33,127 bases of DNA from a virus (Duplodnaviria; Heunggongvirae; Uroviricota; Caudoviricetes): positions 1 to 33,127 of IMG/VR virus record IMGVR_UViG_2534682108_000003; one strand, written 5' to 3'. How positions within the stretch are numbered: position 1 is the stretch's first letter; every line of letters begins with the position of its first letter. Positions 11,383 to 17,249 of this stretch are shown piece after piece. The notes under the pieces were generated by a model. It ran no database searches and was not told the DNA's origin. It was given only the letters and a program-made list of their open reading frames with translations. The translations under genes were made by a program, and so were the position numbers.

Positions 11383-12108
11383 TTAGGCTGCGGTAGAAAC
11401 ATTAACTAGATTTCTCAATACTTCAACTCCTTTTGAGTTGTAGCGGAATGCTTCCACCTGTTTGCTGGAATGCGCAGATTTATCCAGGAAGAACTTCCCG
11501 TACTGCTCAGTTTTGAGGTTGTTTGCGTTAGCAATGCGACCAATCTTGTTTGCCGTTACTCCAAGCTGCTCTGCAACCTCCCCTGCTGAGTAGTAATGCT
11601 CTTCTATTGCCGGAAGAGGTATTGCATTAAAACCAACGAGCGGGTTGATTATACTTGCTGCCGCTGTCTGCTTTGCCTCCGGCGCAAGATTTGGCATCAG
11701 ATCGAACAGATTGGTAACAGCTTCAACCGTCATTTTCAATGTTCGCGCTTGACGATACTCAACAAGTCCACTCGCTGATTTACCGCTTTTAATGTGCGCT
11801 TCCTGCATACTTTCAAGTTTGTCTACAAGTGTTCGGCGAACTGCTTTAGATTCGCGAGCAGCAACACGAAGCGCCTGCTTGATAGTCATGGAGATAACAT
11901 CAATGTCAGCCCCGTTTTTCCGACCTACACTTTTTGTGTAGGTCTCGCCTTCCAATTCATCCTCAATTTTCTCGATGAATTTGTTGTTACGTACTGATGG
12001 CTCTCCACATAACTTGCGAGCTTCATTAACCATCATCAGAAGACTTTGGCTGTCAATGGTTTTATCCGTGACAACGGATCCGATGTTTGCTACATTCTTA
12101 AAAGTCAT
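11383..12108 (-). CDS. phage antirepressor, KilAC-domain type
   Basis: ATG at 12108 with AAGGAA SD; about 241 aa; product family assigned from my recollection of KilA-C antirepressor sequences; the track ORF to 12192 overlaps the upstream gene and is probably over-extended. Confidence 0.5.
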   Translation of the reverse strand: MTFKNVANIGSVVTDKTIDSQSLLMMVNEARKLCGEPSVRNNKFIEKIEDELEGETYTKSVGRKNGADIDVISMTIKQALRVAARESKAVRRTLVDKLESMQEAHIKSGKSASGLVEYRQARTLKMTVEAVTNLFDLMPNLAPEAKQTAAASIINPLVGFNAIPLPAIEEHYYSAGEVAEQLGVTANKIGRIANANNLKTEQYGKFFLDKSAHSSKQVEAFRYNSKGVEVLRNLVNVSTAA

Positions 12109-12191
12109 TAGGCATTCCTTATGTGGTAGTAAGGGTGTGACATAGGCCGCCAGCAGCACACTGGCGGTTTTTTTCACCGCCAGATGCGTCA

Positions 12192-13106
12192 TTAATACAG
12201 ATGAACAGAAGGCGGCAATTCTTTATTCTTAAGCCTTATCCATGCGGAAAGATTCGTTGGTCCGTCTGGCTCATTAATATCAACATCTCGTGTGTGGTTT
12301 ATTAAAACGTCTCTCGCCATTCCGATAACATACGAGAATTCATGACCGTAGTCGTAGCATCTGCCGGAATAGTTCGATTGAATTTGTTTTAGCGCCGGAT
12401 ACAGTTCGCGGAATAATGCCTGTGAACGGTTGGCATAATCCCATAACCATACAAGGCTGTTTGCTTCTTTTGCAGAAAGCTCGTTGGTTTTCTTCTCTTG
12501 TTTGCCGATGAATTCACCTTCAAGTGGAACTCGAGCTGCAAGTGACAGTGCTTCGGTAAACTGCTCCTCACTGATTTCTTTGTACGAACATCCAAAATGG
12601 GATTTCAGTGACGACCACATGGTGATCATCGCCTTAGCCTGTTTTTCTTTTGGCAGAGACTGACCGCGACTCATGACGAGTTGTTTAATAGCTTCCTGCT
12701 GTTCAGTGGTGATTTTACCAGGCAACGCTTTTTTATCTTTCGGTGTATTTCCGTAAGACCCCGTTTTACGAATGGATGGCAAAACTTCAGCTGTTACCCA
12801 TTTGCGGAATTTGTGCGGGACTGAACCTTTATTGACGGCATCACGGCAGCGCAGAACCAATGTATACATACCTGATTCGCTCACAATGCTTAAATTCTGC
12901 TCACCACCAAGGGTGTAACTTAAAGTTACTCCCTTCTCATCGTCATCAAGTGCAGTAAGCGCCTTGCGTGAGTTAGTCAGGGTTAAAGCATCACAAACAT
13001 CTTTTGCTACAAACCACGGCTCACCGCACTTGTTGATGACGCGGATTTCACTGTCGCCGAATTTGAAGATGGTGAAATCGTTTTGTTCCTTTGCTATACT
13101 TTTCAT
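12192..13106 (-). CDS. phage antirepressor with Bro-N domain (Ant-like)
   Basis: 304-aa ORF; N-terminal Bro-N-like region ([30 protein letters not shown]); located directly downstream of an Arc-like gene, as ant is in P22 immI. Confidence 0.65.
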
Positions 13107-13177
13107 GTCAATATTTCCCGATCAGATTTGTTGATGTAGAAGCCTCGCCAGTTCCCGCTGTCGGGGCTTCGTTATTT

Positions 13178-13339
13178 TTAGAGAGCATTCCGCATTTTCT
13201 CCCGGTACTTCAACCACCAAGCAAGTCCCTGAACCAACACTGAGTTTTCTGACATCCCCTCTTCCTTAGCGATGCGTTTCACCTCCTCCTTAAAACGGTA
13301 CGGATACCGAAGAGTTGTCTTCACTTCATTCTTTTCCAT
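13178..13339 (-). CDS. arc: Arc-like ribbon-helix-helix repressor (53 aa), not in the ORF track
   Basis: Hand-translated: ATG at 13339 with AAGGAG SD 5 nt upstream, TAA at 13178-13180; MEKNEVKTTLRYPYRFKEEVKRIAKEEGMSENSVLVQGLAWWLKYREKMRNAL; pattern parallels P22 Arc as I recall it; divergent from the mnt-like gene. Confidence 0.5.
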   Translation of the reverse strand: MEKNEVKTTLRYPYRFKEEVKRIAKEEGMSENSVLVQGLAWWLKYREKMRNAL

Positions 13340-13441
13340 TGATTACTCCTTTTTACGTAATGGCATTATGCCTTGAAAGCAATATGCCATCATTGAATAT
13401 AAATAGCAATATGCCATCATTGTTTTTTTTGAGGTGATGTT
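13340..13441. promoter_or_regulatory. divergent promoter/operator region between arc-like and mnt-like genes
   Basis: Two 18-bp direct repeats AGCAATATGCCATCATTG (13378-13395 and 13405-13422) plus an inverted copy of the ATGCCAT core at 13360-13375 (AATGGCATTATGCC); flanked by divergent RHH repressor genes. Confidence 0.45.
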
Positions 13442-13762
13442 ATGGCTGAAAAGCAGGTTAAAGATTACGAAAAGTTTGTTGTGCGTTTCCCTGACGGGAT
13501 GAGGGACGCGATTGCGGAGAGAGCCAAACGAAACGGGCGCTCTATGAACTCAGAGATTGTGCAGATACTGGAAGATGCCTTGAATGCAGAAAATACTCTT
13601 GGGGAAATAGCAGACAAAATCAACAGCGTCTCGGTTCCGCTAAATGTTGATGCGCTAGTTCAACTTCAAGCCCAGGTTATCGCCATGCAAAAAGAAATAC
13701 AGGAAAAGTTCAGAGAGCAGAACGAAAAGTTGAGAGAACTACTAAACAAAAAACCCACCTGA
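13442..13762 (+). CDS. mnt: Mnt-like ribbon-helix-helix repressor
   Basis: 106-aa ORF with GAGGTGA SD; N-terminal RHH segment FVVRFPDGMRDAIAERAKRNGRSMNSEIVQILEDAL closely parallels the P22 Mnt N-terminus as I recall it; coiled-coil C-terminus. Confidence 0.65.
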   Translation: MAEKQVKDYEKFVVRFPDGMRDAIAERAKRNGRSMNSEIVQILEDALNAENTLGEIADKINSVSVPLNVDALVQLQAQVIAMQKEIQEKFREQNEKLRELLNKKPT

Positions 13763-13777
13763 CGGTGGGTTTCATAA

Positions 13778-14746
13778 TTAGATTTCTGGTTTCATTCTTC
13801 CGAAAACCTTTTCTATTCCTTTTTCGTATTCTTCTCTTGTCTCACTCATCGCTGCGACACCAAGAAGCTTACCGATATGCTGACGCAAAGCCTTGACACC
13901 AATTTCAGAAAGGAACAGATGCAACTTATCAGATTGTTTTCCGTTCTCGTCTCGGCTGGCTCGAATCTGTTCAAGTATTTTACCTTTACTCTTTGCTAGC
14001 GGGGTGTATATCTGCATGTTGGTTAGCTGCCCAAAACGAATAGGCCGTCCTTTCTCTGGCCTATTCAGTCCGTACAGTCGATACCACTCCTCGTATAGCT
14101 CATCTGGAAATTCCTTTTCATATTGACGAGCCTCTTCACGAACAAACGCTTTGAACTCGTCAATGACAGCCTGAACTTCTGGACGATAACCAGCAAGCGC
14201 ATACGCAACCCCCTTAATTCCCGCCTTAGCGGAGGCATTAATAAGTCTCTGTGCTGCGGCGGCTGCCTTTAACCGTGATTGTGGTAGATCGTCATTATCT
14301 TTGGCTTCTATTAGTGCCCTACCAATATCAACAATTGCTGTAATGTCATAACCTAACGCTTGATGAACGGTTTTAGACTTCGAAGTAAGTTGAAATTTAT
14401 AGGGATTTTCCATTTTTCGCTGCAATTCTAGATCTCGGTATTTGCTCATATACTGAGCGCCAAGCAGTTGATCTAAATCCCTGGCATGTTCACCAATCCC
14501 TAGCAACTGAGATAATCCAGTTTTCGTAACAACGACAGTTTTCGACTCGTCATCCAGTACATAACATTCAGCATCAATGCCAAAATCATCTAAAAAGTTA
14601 CCACGATGAGTTGCCCTGAGAATCTTACTTTTCCATCTTGCAGCAGCTGCTTTCTTTGCTATTTCAGAACGCTGCTCTTTAGTCAGCGATTTTGCGCGAG
14701 CGATCCCGCCCTTGGCTTTCCCTTCGCCACTTTTCTTTTCAGTCAT
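13778..14746 (-). CDS. P63C-like phage protein, putative DNA-binding (322 aa)
   Basis: ATG at 14746; N-terminal basic motif KGGIARAKSLTKEQRSEIAKKAAAARW, which I recall as common in P63C-type phage proteins; the track ORF extension to 14848 runs into the promoter and is rejected. Confidence 0.45.
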   Translation of the reverse strand: MTEKKSGEGKAKGGIARAKSLTKEQRSEIAKKAAAARWKSKILRATHRGNFLDDFGIDAECYVLDDESKTVVVTKTGLSQLLGIGEHARDLDQLLGAQYMSKYRDLELQRKMENPYKFQLTSKSKTVHQALGYDITAIVDIGRALIEAKDNDDLPQSRLKAAAAAQRLINASAKAGIKGVAYALAGYRPEVQAVIDEFKAFVREEARQYEKEFPDELYEEWYRLYGLNRPEKGRPIRFGQLTNMQIYTPLAKSKGKILEQIRASRDENGKQSDKLHLFLSEIGVKALRQHIGKLLGVAAMSETREEYEKGIEKVFGRMKPEI

Positions 14747-14955
14747 AATGCAAGCACCTTTGCTGTGATATATGCTTGCATTATATGCACTGTACCCACA
14801 TACAAGCAAGCATAAAACAAAAGAAAAATGCTTGCATTGCAACCGCACTACTCCAACTACACAGTATCATCTGGTATCCTGCGCAAAACTAACTGTTGCG
14901 TGCTTTTGCTTCAGTTAACGGATACAAACATAGGAAACGTTACAAGGGGAAAGCT
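14747..14955. promoter_or_regulatory. divergent intergenic region with repeated ATGCTTGCAT motif
   Basis: Direct copies ATGCTTGCAT at 14772-14781 and 14828-14837, inverted copy ATGCAAGCA at 14748-14756 and a related CAAGCAAGCAT at 14803-14813, between two divergently oriented genes. Confidence 0.4.
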
Positions 14956-15429
14956 GTGGAACAAGTGATTAAAGTTACAGCAATTGCCATTATCCTTCTC
15001 ACCATGTCACCCATTACAGCAACGGCAAAAAAAATTAATGTTTTGAATGGCTATCCACAGGAAGTAACGACCATTATTAATGACCCTAAAAATGAAGTGG
15101 TAATGATTAAGTCATTTAATGTCGATTCTTCCGGGTGTGACGTCAGGGAGCAAATGATGCTGATAGATAAAATCACAATGGACTCAGACGATAGATACCC
15201 AGAAAAAATGACATTCAGAGATATGCAAAACATGCGAATAAGCATGCCAACAAATTTTTCTTCTTTAGATAATGCCAGCAGATCATGGACTGATAGCATG
15301 TTCTCAGAAAACGAATGGGTAAATGTTCAATATTTACTTTGCGGCTCTGGAGGATTCCCACAAATGACTTCCATATCCAAGCATTCAAAGAGGTTCCCTA
15401 AAGTTGGTGTAACGATAGGTAGCAAGTAA
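14956..15429 (+). CDS. secreted/periplasmic hypothetical protein (moron)
   Basis: GTG at 14956 with AAGGGGA SD; N-terminal signal-peptide-like segment VTAIAIILLTMSPITATA followed by a hydrophilic domain with two Cys; plus strand, convergent with the tape-measure gene; the track TTG start at 14896 is doubtful. Confidence 0.4.
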   Translation: MEQVIKVTAIAIILLTMSPITATAKKINVLNGYPQEVTTIINDPKNEVVMIKSFNVDSSGCDVREQMMLIDKITMDSDDRYPEKMTFRDMQNMRISMPTNFSSLDNASRSWTDSMFSENEWVNVQYLLCGSGGFPQMTSISKHSKRFPKVGVTIGSK

Positions 15430-15431
15430 TA

Positions 15432-17249
15432 TTAAGGATTCACTCCACTAGAAAATGCCGCGTTTGTTGACACCCGGCTAACTTGCTGATTGACACTTCT
15501 GGTAAGAGCATCAACTGTTGTCGGGTTACTGTTAACAACAACCGTGCCAATAGTTGTACTGCTGCTACGACTGTTGTCAATTTTTGATGTTGTCTGGCTT
15601 GGTGTTGAAGCGATGCGTTGCTGCTGCTGATAGTAAGCCAGCGTCTCGTTTTCTTTTGCATTAAGAGCAGCGCGAATCTTTGGCACATATTCTCGCGTCT
15701 CTTTCGGTAAGGTGTTCCAGTATTTGGATGATGGTGAATCAAACCCGGTACTGGATATGTATTTTAACTTTTTGTCTACATTGCCCATCCCCCAGTTGTA
15801 AGCCATCAGCGCATGGTTAACATTGCCTTTGTAATGCTTTAGCAAATACTGCATGTACTTTGTGACTGCTGTGCGGGATTTTTCTTCATCAAGTCTCTCA
15901 TCAATTCCATCACCAACTTTCAGGCCTAACTCTCTAGCTGTATCAGGCATAAGCTGATAAGGTCCCGCAGCGCCTCTCGAACTGAAAAGATTTTTACCAC
16001 CACTCGATTCCACCTCACGAATGGCATCAAGAAGAGAATCCATGCTTACAGGCTTTACTCCGTCAGGGAGAGGGATATCTGGCTGAATGTTATTGCCATA
16101 AATCTCATCTCCCCTACGCCCAAAATCGGTGTCAAACCCCATGCTGCGCATGGTATCTCCAAGTTCACGCTTAGAGTAATCAAACGATCCTTTAGCTGCA
16201 CCCTCAATGTTTTCCCTGTCATTGTAGAGGTACAAACCATATGCTATTAACCCAGCCAACCATGGAGGAAGGGCACCGCCTGTAAGTTTGCTTCCTACAT
16301 ATGCTGCTGCCAATAGCTTCAGAGCCTCTTCCGCACCACCAACTGCCTTTGTGAATTGCTTCGTCATATTCCCGGCGTCATTGAAAAAGCCAATGATGTC
16401 GCCATGATGTTTCTCAATCCAGGAACCAAAAGCCTTCATCCCGTCAATAACGTCTGGAGCGAATGCCATGGCTAAATTTTGCTTTAATCGGGAAAACTCT
16501 GAATCAAGTTGCCCAAGAGTGGCAGCAACCTTCTCCTGCTCTTTTACCTGCTGTGCTGTAATACGGGATTTCTTTGTTTCTGAATCGACAAGCTGCTTAA
16601 GTTCCCCTGATTTTATTTTAGCGGCATCTGTCGGATCGAACCCTGCGGCAGCCATCACCTGCATCAGGTTTTCTTGAGAATGAGTCTTGCCATAGCGAGA
16701 AAACTCAGCAAGAGCCTTGTTTGGGTCGCCGAGCTTATTGATATCTAATCCGGTACGAGCGCCAAGAACCAGCAAATTTTGGGCAGCGCCAGTAAGCCCT
16801 CCCATAACAGTTGGATCGGCAATATTTGCCAAAGCCATTCTGGCATTCCCAGAAGATGAAATGAACGAGTCACCGTTAAGACCAGCCTGCCGAAATCCCC
16901 GCTGAACACCAAACATCTTATTAACATCAGAGCCGAAAAACTTGGCCTGTTGACTGGCTCTCACAATTTCGTTGGCAGTAGATGTAAAAAGTTGCTTGAT
17001 TCCATACAACCCGGCGCCGATTCCCAAAAATCCAGCGGCTGCTGTTGTTACGTTGCGGAAAGCTGAAACAGCGGTTTTACCGAACCTCTCCGTTTCCTGT
17101 CGCTGTTTTTCAAGTTCCTTTAGCCTTTCCTTCTCAGCCCTGGAAAGATCTTTGTTTAATTTACTAACTTCATCTTTTACTTTCCGTTTTCCATTCAGGA
17201 ATTCATCGGCCTTAATTGTGACCTTGTAGGCCAACTCATTGATAATCAT
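15432..17249 (-). CDS. tail tape measure protein with internal lytic transglycosylase (SLT) domain
   Basis: 605-aa ORF; coiled-coil N-terminus, Gly/Ala-rich central region, SLT-like motifs (ESSGGKNLFSSRGAAGPYQLMP...AYNWGMGN); follows the tail chaperone genes. Confidence 0.7.
   Translation of the reverse strand: MIINELAYKVTIKADEFLNGKRKVKDEVSKLNKDLSRAEKERLKELEKQRQETERFGKTAVSAFRNVTTAAAGFLGIGAGLYGIKQLFTSTANEIVRASQQAKFFGSDVNKMFGVQRGFRQAGLNGDSFISSSGNARMALANIADPTVMGGLTGAAQNLLVLGARTGLDINKLGDPNKALAEFSRYGKTHSQENLMQVMAAAGFDPTDAAKIKSGELKQLVDSETKKSRITAQQVKEQEKVAATLGQLDSEFSRLKQNLAMAFAPDVIDGMKAFGSWIEKHHGDIIGFFNDAGNMTKQFTKAVGGAEEALKLLAAAYVGSKLTGGALPPWLAGLIAYGLYLYNDRENIEGAAKGSFDYSKRELGDTMRSMGFDTDFGRRGDEIYGNNIQPDIPLPDGVKPVSMDSLLDAIREVESSGGKNLFSSRGAAGPYQLMPDTARELGLKVGDGIDERLDEEKSRTAVTKYMQYLLKHYKGNVNHALMAYNWGMGNVDKKLKYISSTGFDSPSSKYWNTLPKETREYVPKIRAALNAKENETLAYYQQQQRIASTPSQTTSKIDNSRSSSTTIGTVVVNSNPTTVDALTRSVNQQVSRVSTNAAFSSGVNP

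Follow-up and report, generated by a model that had tools for sequence, protein, structure and literature searches.

The closest described counterpart of the locus analysed here is the immI region of phage P22, in which the DNA-delivery gene 16 is followed by a small envelope protein gene on the opposite strand, sieA with its promoter PsieA, and then by orf59a, mnt, arc, ant and gene 9. The same gene order and orientations are found in a stretch of 33,127 nucleotides (nt) from a virus of the Caudoviricetes (IMG/VR record IMGVR_UViG_2534682108_000003, positions 1 to 33,127; hereafter the window), which covers the late region of a prophage, transcribed from the minus strand, with terminase, capsid, DUF3383 sheath, SLT-domain tape-measure and baseplate genes. 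The likeness extends to Mnt-like, Arc-like and Ant proteins, to a weak sar-like match and to late transcription, which has to cross the island. Unlike P22, the phage has a contractile tail; its slot protein of 157 amino acids (aa) is an exported, soluble-looking OB-like barrel unrelated to the inner-membrane SieA, and a cassette with a gene of the P63C family sits where P22 has a spacer of ~320 bp from PsieA to the mnt terminator. An earlier interpretation of this locus made from the letters of the DNA (the sequence-only reading) took the two divergent genes for a self-regulated moron pair with a repeated motif in their shared promoter. The comparative analysis points to two independent accessory cassettes, with P63C probably repressing its own promoter through a four-site array and the 157-aa gene occupying the sieA slot, a reading to which we assign a probability of roughly 0.55. 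It is to a mobile P63C module that the motif belongs, as its built-in promoter/operator, and not to a gene pair as a shared control region. The anatomy, the independent assortment of the two genes, the conservation of the array and its transposon context are direct observations, whereas the binder of the sites, repression on binding and the functions of both proteins are inferred.

The spacer between the two genes (14747-14955, 209 bp) does hold at least four motif copies in both orientations, as had been noted from the sequence. They are near-palindromic 10-mers (ATGCAAGCAT, core TGCAAGCA) of alternating orientation, located at -91, -67, -35 and -11 from the P63C start codon with 0, 1, 0 and 1 mismatches, respectively (Table 1). 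Because the predicted -35 lies inside site 2 and the predicted -10 overlaps site 3, the sites themselves would constitute the promoter, of the sigma-70 type; the predicted transcription start of P63C coincides with the 3' end of site 3, and three extra bases separate site 4 from the ATG. The 8-mer core TGCTTGCA occurs six times in the window against 2.2 expected, three of the six copies falling within 90 bp in the spacer, where a fourth copy differs by one base. The remainder of the window and the early region of a sister prophage contain no other motif clusters; the promoter of P63C itself is the sole visible target. The four copies claimed for a shared promoter are thus real, but all of them are confined to the P63C-proximal 91 bp of the spacer (14748-14837) and are inherited with P63C.

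The same array was found far beyond this prophage. In a sample with one genome per species, 80 loci encode full-length P63C homologues (43-72% protein identity) from Enterobacteria, Burkholderiales, Gallionella, Alphaproteobacteria, Myxococcota, Acidobacteriota, Desulfobacterota, Firmicutes, Abditibacteriota and others, and the start codon could be assigned in 79. The four-site array is present in 57 of these 79 loci, with ATGCAAGCAT at ~-87, ATGCTTGCAT at ~-64, ATGCAAGCAT at ~-32 and ATGCTTGCAT at ~-8 from the start codon; across loci, the core TGCAAGCA shows essentially no variation, and only the outermost bases differ. Since the same 10-mer recurs at the same four positions upstream of homologous genes from many phyla, the array is not a product of chance.

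The anatomy of the array was derived from 58 sequences, the 57 loci and the window. Site 2 carries TTGCAT in the logo of the 58 arrays; the T and A at -4 and -3 before site 3 are kept in 45 and 51 of them, respectively, giving TAnnAT with the AT of the site itself, and the distance between sites 2 and 3 is 31-32 nt in 51, which corresponds to a promoter spacer of 17-18 nt. A conserved aGGa (Shine-Dalgarno) directly precedes site 4 in the logo, and in 39 arrays site 4 lies at -8, so that it ends with the AT of the ATG start codon. The window has the defining features of this four-site module throughout: the > < > < order, the -35 in site 2, the -10 over site 3 and the N-terminal motif in the encoded protein.

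A search of viral contigs with the pattern TGCAAGCA-N12-18-TGCTTGCA gave further cases: among the 120 matches listed, a P63C homologue begins right beside the inverted pair in at least 64, which is a lower bound, and most of the remaining contigs listed look like chance two-site matches inside long open reading frames (ORFs). Some of the viral homologues, at 26-33% identity, still hold the full array. Repressor-operator pairs and other phage regulators normally diversify in specificity; here the operator is conserved across phyla though the protein falls below 30% identity, which is unusual for phage regulators. Like other autorepressed promoters set in operator arrays (P22 Arc and Mnt at Pant and Pmnt, toxin-antitoxin modules), the array has short near-palindromic sites over the -35, the -10 and the gene start, and in its transposon form it shows divergent overlapping promoters. 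Unlike them, its operator is near-invariant across phyla, the four sites alternate strictly, the start codon falls within the last site, and the presumed DNA-binding element is a 30-aa motif.

The two genes of the window assort independently. A block conserved in megablast comparisons (13745-14892), comprising the terminator, P63C, the repeats and a 30-bp leader, recurs with ~98% identity in dozens of Escherichia coli prophages, and the block common with P22-like prophages starts at window position 13745-13748. Of 5426 complete E. coli genomes, 73 carry the P63C cassette and four the 157-aa gene, leader remnants being left in two more, and cassette and gene are adjacent in one genome only, KCJ3K291. 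An identical P63C protein (WP_000136767.1) stands beside three other small membrane proteins or beside none, unrelated small membrane proteins adjoin P63C in P22-like prophages, and in TW10590 the P63C gene directly adjoins the tape-measure gene with nothing intervening. In E423, EC16 and A41, the 157-aa gene is present and a Panacea-domain pair replaces P63C; since this pair stands in the P63C position in sister prophages, the slot swaps accessory cassettes. The remnants left in TW10590, where the antirepressor N-terminal domain gene persists as a fragment beside the P63C cassette (L003 2740-3006) and the leader of the deleted 157-aa gene remains, are evidence of recent cassette turnover in the slot. 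A LexA-family gene takes the place of the Mnt-like one in EC16 and A41. We propose that the first cassette (13745-~14860) would consist of the P63C-family gene carrying its own regulatory module, and the second (14863-15429) of the 157-aa gene behind a PsieA-like promoter.

The model of the sequence-only reading, a co-regulated moron pair in which P63C controls the secreted protein through motifs in a shared promoter, would draw on the divergent arrangement of genes 209 bp apart and on site 1, which ends 27 bp upstream of a PsieA-like -10 without a good -35, where a bound protein could activate or hinder transcription. In E423, without P63C, a good -35 (TTCACA) is found at a spacing of 17 nt where the window has ACCGCA, because the P63C cassette abuts there. 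Against such a pair stand the single co-occurrence among 73 and four genomes, the four sites with the same spacing beside a transposase, another gene or nothing, and the plus-strand gene that keeps its own -10 and leader in the absence of P63C; this model is accordingly improbable. Because the repeats belong to, and travel with, the P63C cassette only, no evidence was obtained for P63C as a dedicated regulator of the secreted protein. Of the proposed self-regulated pair, self-regulation of P63C is strongly suggested by the comparative anatomy, whereas the pairing itself did not hold.

A further line of evidence is the transposon context. Near P63C, 50 of the 80 genome loci encode a conserved protein of ~290 aa, its gene being divergent from P63C at 49 loci and no more than 400 bp away at 42; it is a DDE transposase of the IS1 family (Pfam DDE_Tnp_IS1 above threshold in 4/4 tested, best NCBIfam match IS1). 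P63C and its array form the core of this transposon, which is found in many phyla. The array lies where P63C and the divergent transposase gene part, and in these IS1-type insertion sequences (IS), site 1 falls within the 5' leader of the transposase gene. Three 99.9%-identical copies of 2519-2521 bp were found in one Kaistiaceae genome bin (L077/78/80), with terminal inverted repeats GGT(G/A)GTGC(A/G)TCAGTTTGAA and, in two of the three, 8-bp target duplications that match (GACTTTTC and GGCGCTTG). Inverted repeats of this type bound a unit of transposase and P63C (2.3-2.9 kb) in at least ten other genomes; inverted repeats GGTAGTGnnTCAGTTTGAA together with 8-bp target duplications were recorded in L016, L021, L031, L045, L060, L069, L074, L077/78/80 and L084. 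The transposon also holds a small convergent ORF of 73-108 aa without Pfam match. On the transposase-side strand, the sequences mirror the promoter, with TTGCAT in site 3 and nAnAAT over site 2, so that the array would span two overlapping divergent promoters.

The transposase is present in only 2 of the 64 viral loci among the matches listed. It was not detected by tblastn in the window or in the E. coli and phage loci L001-L006, and the IS ends GGTAGTGnnTCAGTTTGAA had no match in the window with up to three mismatches. In enterobacterial phage cassettes, site 2 reads ATGCTTGCTT, which abolishes the last T of the transposase-side -10, a change consistent with loss of the transposase-side promoter. 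Judged from these sequences, the phage cassette is a transposase-less version of the transposon module. Like IS1-family elements with passenger genes (tIS), the P63C element of other genomes encodes a DDE transposase of the IS1 family, is bordered by target duplications of 8 bp and has IS1-like ends GGTAGTG..., comparable with the IS1 end (GGTGATGC); unlike them, the window lacks transposase and IS ends and retains the P63C regulatory cassette only. A paper on the IS1 family with passenger genes mentions tIS in general terms only. The literature search returned no description of the operator, of its link to P63C or of an IS1-type element with P63C, ISfinder lying outside that search.

In classical IS1, the transposase promoter is under the control of InsA, a repressor that the transposon itself encodes. 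P63C has no relationship to this protein, and regulation of transposition by P63C would be conjectural. The sites could nevertheless be bound by the IS1-family transposase, which has an N-terminal helix-turn-helix and is encoded divergently across the array in 49 of the 80 genome loci, or by a host factor, P63C being a passenger. This we regard as highly improbable: the array is fully kept, without the transposase, in 62 of the 64 viral loci among the matches listed and in every E. coli prophage copy, it is unlikely that Firmicutes, Acidobacteriota, Myxococcota and Proteobacteria would all have a host factor of the same 8-bp specificity, and the operator covaries with the N-terminus of P63C.

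Autorepression by P63C is the best-supported mechanism, and probably the correct one. The protein would bind the four sites as double-stranded DNA and tightly shut off its own promoter, so that the prophage would make a small, buffered amount of P63C. Binding would most likely occur through the conserved N-terminal basic motif GGxARAxxLxxxxRxxIAxxAAxxRW, to which we provisionally give even odds as the site reader; a Bro-N-like domain may alternatively read the DNA. Several observations argue for the N-terminal motif. The array persists in phages, where its sole constant neighbour is the P63C gene itself. An acidobacterial P63C subgroup without TGCAAGCA has a changed operator, GGCAAGTA, together with a changed N-terminal motif: its inverted pair TATACTTGCyCGrG / CyCGGGCAAGTATA carries symmetric TTGACT boxes in a symmetric divergent-promoter design, and its N-terminus is longer and altered (...LGAAKGGEARA...EIARAAIQARWEKAGK). 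Two proteins of the RhuM family (PF13310, ~1e-65, ~380 aa) have only the N-terminal motif in common with P63C, and their genes have the same site 3, Shine-Dalgarno sequence, site 4 and CATG start. Finally, the motif is the best-preserved P63C segment in homologues at 26-33% identity.

The repeats might act as RNA instead. The arms would pair in full-leader transcripts and hide the Shine-Dalgarno sequence and the AUG, so that no P63C would be translated from read-through transcripts, either late Q-antiterminated ones crossing the island or outside transcripts entering the IS; such an effect could add to repression at the DNA. Fold-back inhibition of this kind is known for the IS10 transposase. 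The 111-nt leader RNA (14845->14735) folds at -45.7 kcal/mol (z -5.9) into a structure in which site 1 pairs with site 4, site 2 pairs with site 3, and the Shine-Dalgarno sequence and the AUG are enclosed, site 4 ends within the start codon in the 39 arrays mentioned above, the P63C gene follows the tape-measure gene on the strand of the late operon, and alternating orientation is a requirement of hairpins that would explain the strict alternation. A constraint on structure only would, however, permit compensatory drift, while the 8-bp core is identical in all arms across phyla, and hairpin covariation was rejected, since at the variable outer positions inter-arm pairing was no better than in shuffles (p 0.16-0.45). 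Moreover, RNA initiated at the predicted start of the conserved internal promoter is without the 5' arms, and its fold is unremarkable (z 0.3), the operator changes together with the P63C N-terminus in one subgroup, and no Rfam family exceeded its threshold on the leader, the sole match in Rfam 15 being a chance hit to MIR3440 (26.5 bits vs 105). Because the arms share one invariant sequence, the outer positions do not pair and the start-site RNA has no special fold, the sites are best read as double-stranded DNA operators, and action through RNA is considered unlikely.

Several points weigh against autorepression through a four-site operator as set out here. A clear array is lacking in 22 of the 79 loci, taxonomic labels can be wrong for metagenome bins carrying mobile DNA, and the -35 of the window matches the consensus at three of six positions only. 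Repression and the identity of the binder are what we infer from these comparisons, and a simple model of one dimer per site leaves the strict > < > < orientation unexplained. As to the reader, the RhuM evidence comes from two related proteins, more than 7500 proteins contain the N-terminal motif, which makes it very common, and the four-site array is absent upstream of the three small YciG-like genes checked, one of which has a single exact core and related repeats. Because the motif is widespread and these three genes are without the array, the motif alone may not specify TGCAAGCA. Elsewhere, the motif is found mostly as tandem copies in proteins of 60-83 aa that carry the JGI label 'general stress protein YciG' (P0166-P0285).

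The P63C protein of the window, whose presence with a basic N-terminal motif had been correctly recognized, matches Pfam P63C (PF10546) at residues 199-286 (52.7 bits vs a cut-off of 26.1, 6.8e-14), and phrog_2384 over its full length (1.7e-104), in domain searches of the kind proposed in the sequence-only reading; full-length homologues number 1682. It consists of the N-terminal basic helical motif (residues ~9-38), a beta-rich domain (~43-134) and a helical C-terminal region including the Pfam domain, with many invariant charged and aromatic residues across phyla. In the structure search proposed alongside, the AlphaFold model (pLDDT 76.6) gave weak fold matches of the beta-rich domain, enriched for Bro-N, Ant-N and KilA-N proteins; neither P63C nor the 157-aa protein has a solved-structure relative by single-sequence or profile search. 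P63C resembles the Bro-N/KilA-N antirepressor-like proteins in these weak fold matches, in the combination of an N-terminal beta-rich putative DNA-binding domain with a helical C-terminal module, and in the proximity of its gene to a true Ant; the Pfam P63C domain is said to derive from the 2002 work of Iyer, Koonin and Aravind on modular Bro-N/KilA-N phage proteins. NCBIfam returned nothing for either protein, PADLOC 2.0 gave no match for either at E up to 0.1, fold and profile searches revealed no recognisable catalytic fold in P63C, and a literature search yielded nothing on its function. A Pfam 'CSLinker' match on the N-terminal motif, an algal pyrenoid linker motif, was dismissed as chance.

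P63C might be an effector of the defence or addiction type (abortive infection or toxin-like) and not a regulator, autorepression keeping a harmful protein low and the slot being a defence hotspot. Panacea-domain pairs are toxin-antitoxin modules. The presence of such a pair in the same slot of sister prophages, the same regulatory module on RhuM-family proteins, the invariant C-terminal residues and the carriage of the gene by selfish elements all fit an effector; the lack of a PADLOC match and of a recognisable catalytic fold and the absence of a consistently present partner gene in phage contexts do not. This reading seems rather unlikely, although it is compatible with the best explanation, autorepression, and not opposed to it. 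A wider combination of these views is also rather doubtful: P63C would be the self-encoded regulator of a mobile module, the ~30-aa motif a portable, sequence-specific reader of TGCAAGCA that would clamp four sites serving as -35, -10 and start codon of its own gene and, in the IS1-family transposon, of the divergent transposase gene, and the sites would double as an RNA fold, P63C controlling transposition in the IS and having a second, effector role in prophages. Under this combination, phages would have captured the transposase-less cassette into moron slots, RhuM-family genes would have borrowed motif and operator, and the same arms would fold read-through RNA and block translation, giving two layers of insulation.

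The divergent gene had been described as encoding a protein of roughly 150 aa with a signal-peptide-like segment, and this description is borne out: the deduced product has 157 aa, with the same start as RefSeq WP_052922733.1, and begins with MEQVIKVTAIAIILLTMSPITATA, followed by KK after a predicted A-x-A cleavage site (by inspection). The signal peptide (residues 1-24, 14956-15027) comprises a basic n-region MEQVIK, a hydrophobic core VTAIAIILLTM and SPITATA, and contains no lipobox cysteine; an equivalent leader is present in all 15 aligned homologues, in which Cys61 and Cys129 are invariant. The protein is confidently modelled as an all-beta OB-like barrel (pLDDT 84.9) with a CGSGG loop. 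Its family is tiny, with 18 clusters in a word-indexed search, for the most part of E. coli and Yersinia origin, and with 28 representatives in 1.84 billion proteins; in a few relatives, fusions to Sel1, PDZ or Adhesin_E domains agree with a predicted location in the envelope. Homology to P22 SieA was rejected (BLASTP E ~3): the cleavable signal peptide and soluble beta-barrel model leave only position and promoter/leader in common. The block AGTATCATCTGGTATCCTGCGCAAAACTAA (14863-14892) is identical in six compared prophages whatever the neighbours, including E423 (seven-way alignment), and matches P22 13836-13870 (TTTTTTCATGGTATCCTGCACAAAACTAAGGAGG), the end of the annotated sieA promoter and the sieA leader. 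Because of this match, the 157-aa gene is placed in the sieA slot, behind a PsieA-like -10; it is always linked to the SLT tape-measure gene.

The second cassette would thus provide a periplasmic OB-like protein acting in the envelope in superinfection exclusion or conversion. Superinfection-exclusion factors include T4 Sp, T5 Llp, phi80 Cor and TP-J34 Ltp. Like these, the 157-aa protein is small, prophage-encoded and predicted to be exported, and its gene stands beside a DNA-delivery gene with its own promoter opposite to the late genes; unlike them, it shows no sequence or fold relationship and has no lipobox. A role in superinfection exclusion is a tentative guess from position, and the protein a possible candidate.

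Coordinates of all features are collected in Table 1. Across a 2.3-kb stretch (13400-15700), the window is 98.6% identical to the E. coli KCJ3K291 prophage, the early region of which is lambdoid (N, cI-like gene, cro, cII, Q and nin genes); the host phage combines a contractile tail with a lambdoid early region. Both genes are, as had been proposed, non-structural accessory genes within the tail operon, and form part of an island that has the SLT tape-measure gene on one side and the baseplate genes on the other. The island has the elements of a P22-type immI, with divergent Mnt-like and Arc-like ribbon-helix-helix genes, followed by ant, among DNA-delivery and tail genes. Because it interrupts the tail operon, late transcripts must cross it; such transcription would run in the sense direction through P63C, arc and ant, and in the antisense direction through the 157-aa gene and the Mnt-like gene. 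The antisense RNA sar of P22 has a sub-threshold match (13108-13174, plus strand, 28.5 bits vs a gathering score of 43), placed as in P22 immI, between the Arc-like gene and ant. Directly downstream of Ant lies a second antirepressor-like gene, the stop and start codons of the two overlapping. A predicted terminator hairpin separates the convergent Mnt-like and P63C genes, and is the left end of the P63C cassette common to prophages. In the P22-like phage vB_EcoP-611R6, the same P63C gene is flanked by a gene-16 homologue and mnt, with the same island order. Several HNH endonuclease genes are scattered over the late and early regions of a sister prophage (L001 22914-23414 and 32357-32854; L210 3319-3843 and 9000-9800); one of them sits among neck genes, where the ORF list of the window has no ORF of comparable size.

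Table 1. Coordinates of the predicted and annotated features of the locus (window positions) and of the related loci.
Feature	Position	Strand	Remarks
Operator site 1 (putative)	14828-14837	-	ATGCAAGCAT on gene strand (exact), ATGCTTGCAT on opposite strand; upstream of promoter
Operator site 2 (putative)	14804-14813	-	ATGCTTGCTT on gene strand; holds predicted -35
Operator site 3 (putative)	14772-14781	-	ATGCAAGCAT on gene strand (exact), ATGCTTGCAT on opposite strand; overlaps -10
Operator site 4 (putative)	14748-14757	-	GTGCTTGCAT on gene strand; from Shine-Dalgarno to start codon
Predicted -35, TTGCTT	14809..14804	-	inside site 2; TTGCAT in family consensus
Predicted -10, TATAAT	14785..14780	-	read from sequence; 18-nt spacer to -35
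Shine-Dalgarno of P63C gene, AAAGG	14757..14761	-	read from sequence
P63C-family gene, 322 aa	13778-14746	-	protein start MTEKKSGEGKAKGGIARAKSLTKEQRSEIAKKAAAARW
PsieA-like -10, TATCAT, and leader GGTATCCTGCGCAAAACTAA	14863..14892	+	-10 at 14865-14870
157-aa gene	14956-15429	+	GTG start at 14956
Accessory island, immI-like	11383-15429		splits tail operon; tape-measure gene on one side, Dit-like and baseplate genes on the other
Second antirepressor-like gene	11383-12192	-	phrog_1726, 9e-99; no Pfam domain
Ant	12192-13106	-	Bro-N and P22AR_C domains
Arc-like gene, 53 aa	13178-13339	-	Arc-family match 0.0038; phrog_582, 1.6e-10
Mnt-like Arc-family gene, 106 aa	13442-13762	+	Arc-family match 1.6e-19
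G+C-rich hairpin, predicted bidirectional terminator	13750..13773		terminator scan; 10-bp stem, then T-run on - strand
SLT-domain tape-measure gene	15432-17249
Acidobacterial alternative operator	~170 bp upstream of P63C start		L025, L029, L033, L035, L040, L042, L048, L051, L064
RhuM-family locus with motif and operator	L199 1507-1703	-
RhuM-family locus with motif and operator	L157 3510-3600	+
Kaistiaceae element, example copy	L077 2973-5493
Panacea-domain protein and 139-aa partner	L004 3371-4238; L208, L209 1269-2136		in P63C position

Thousands of phage and bacterial proteins belong to P63C, a domain of unknown function on which almost nothing has been published. The present analysis defines a 10-bp site and a promoter architecture for it, proposes a candidate DNA-binding motif, and connects an accessory gene of phages with a transposon of the IS1 family. 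The locus also warns annotators that adjacent divergent genes are not to be read as functional pairs. The P22-type sieA/immI slot emerges as an exchange point in prophages of another morphotype, holding P63C, a Panacea pair or nothing, and the rare, putatively periplasmic protein encoded beside it may be a candidate exclusion factor aimed at phages with SLT tape-measure proteins.

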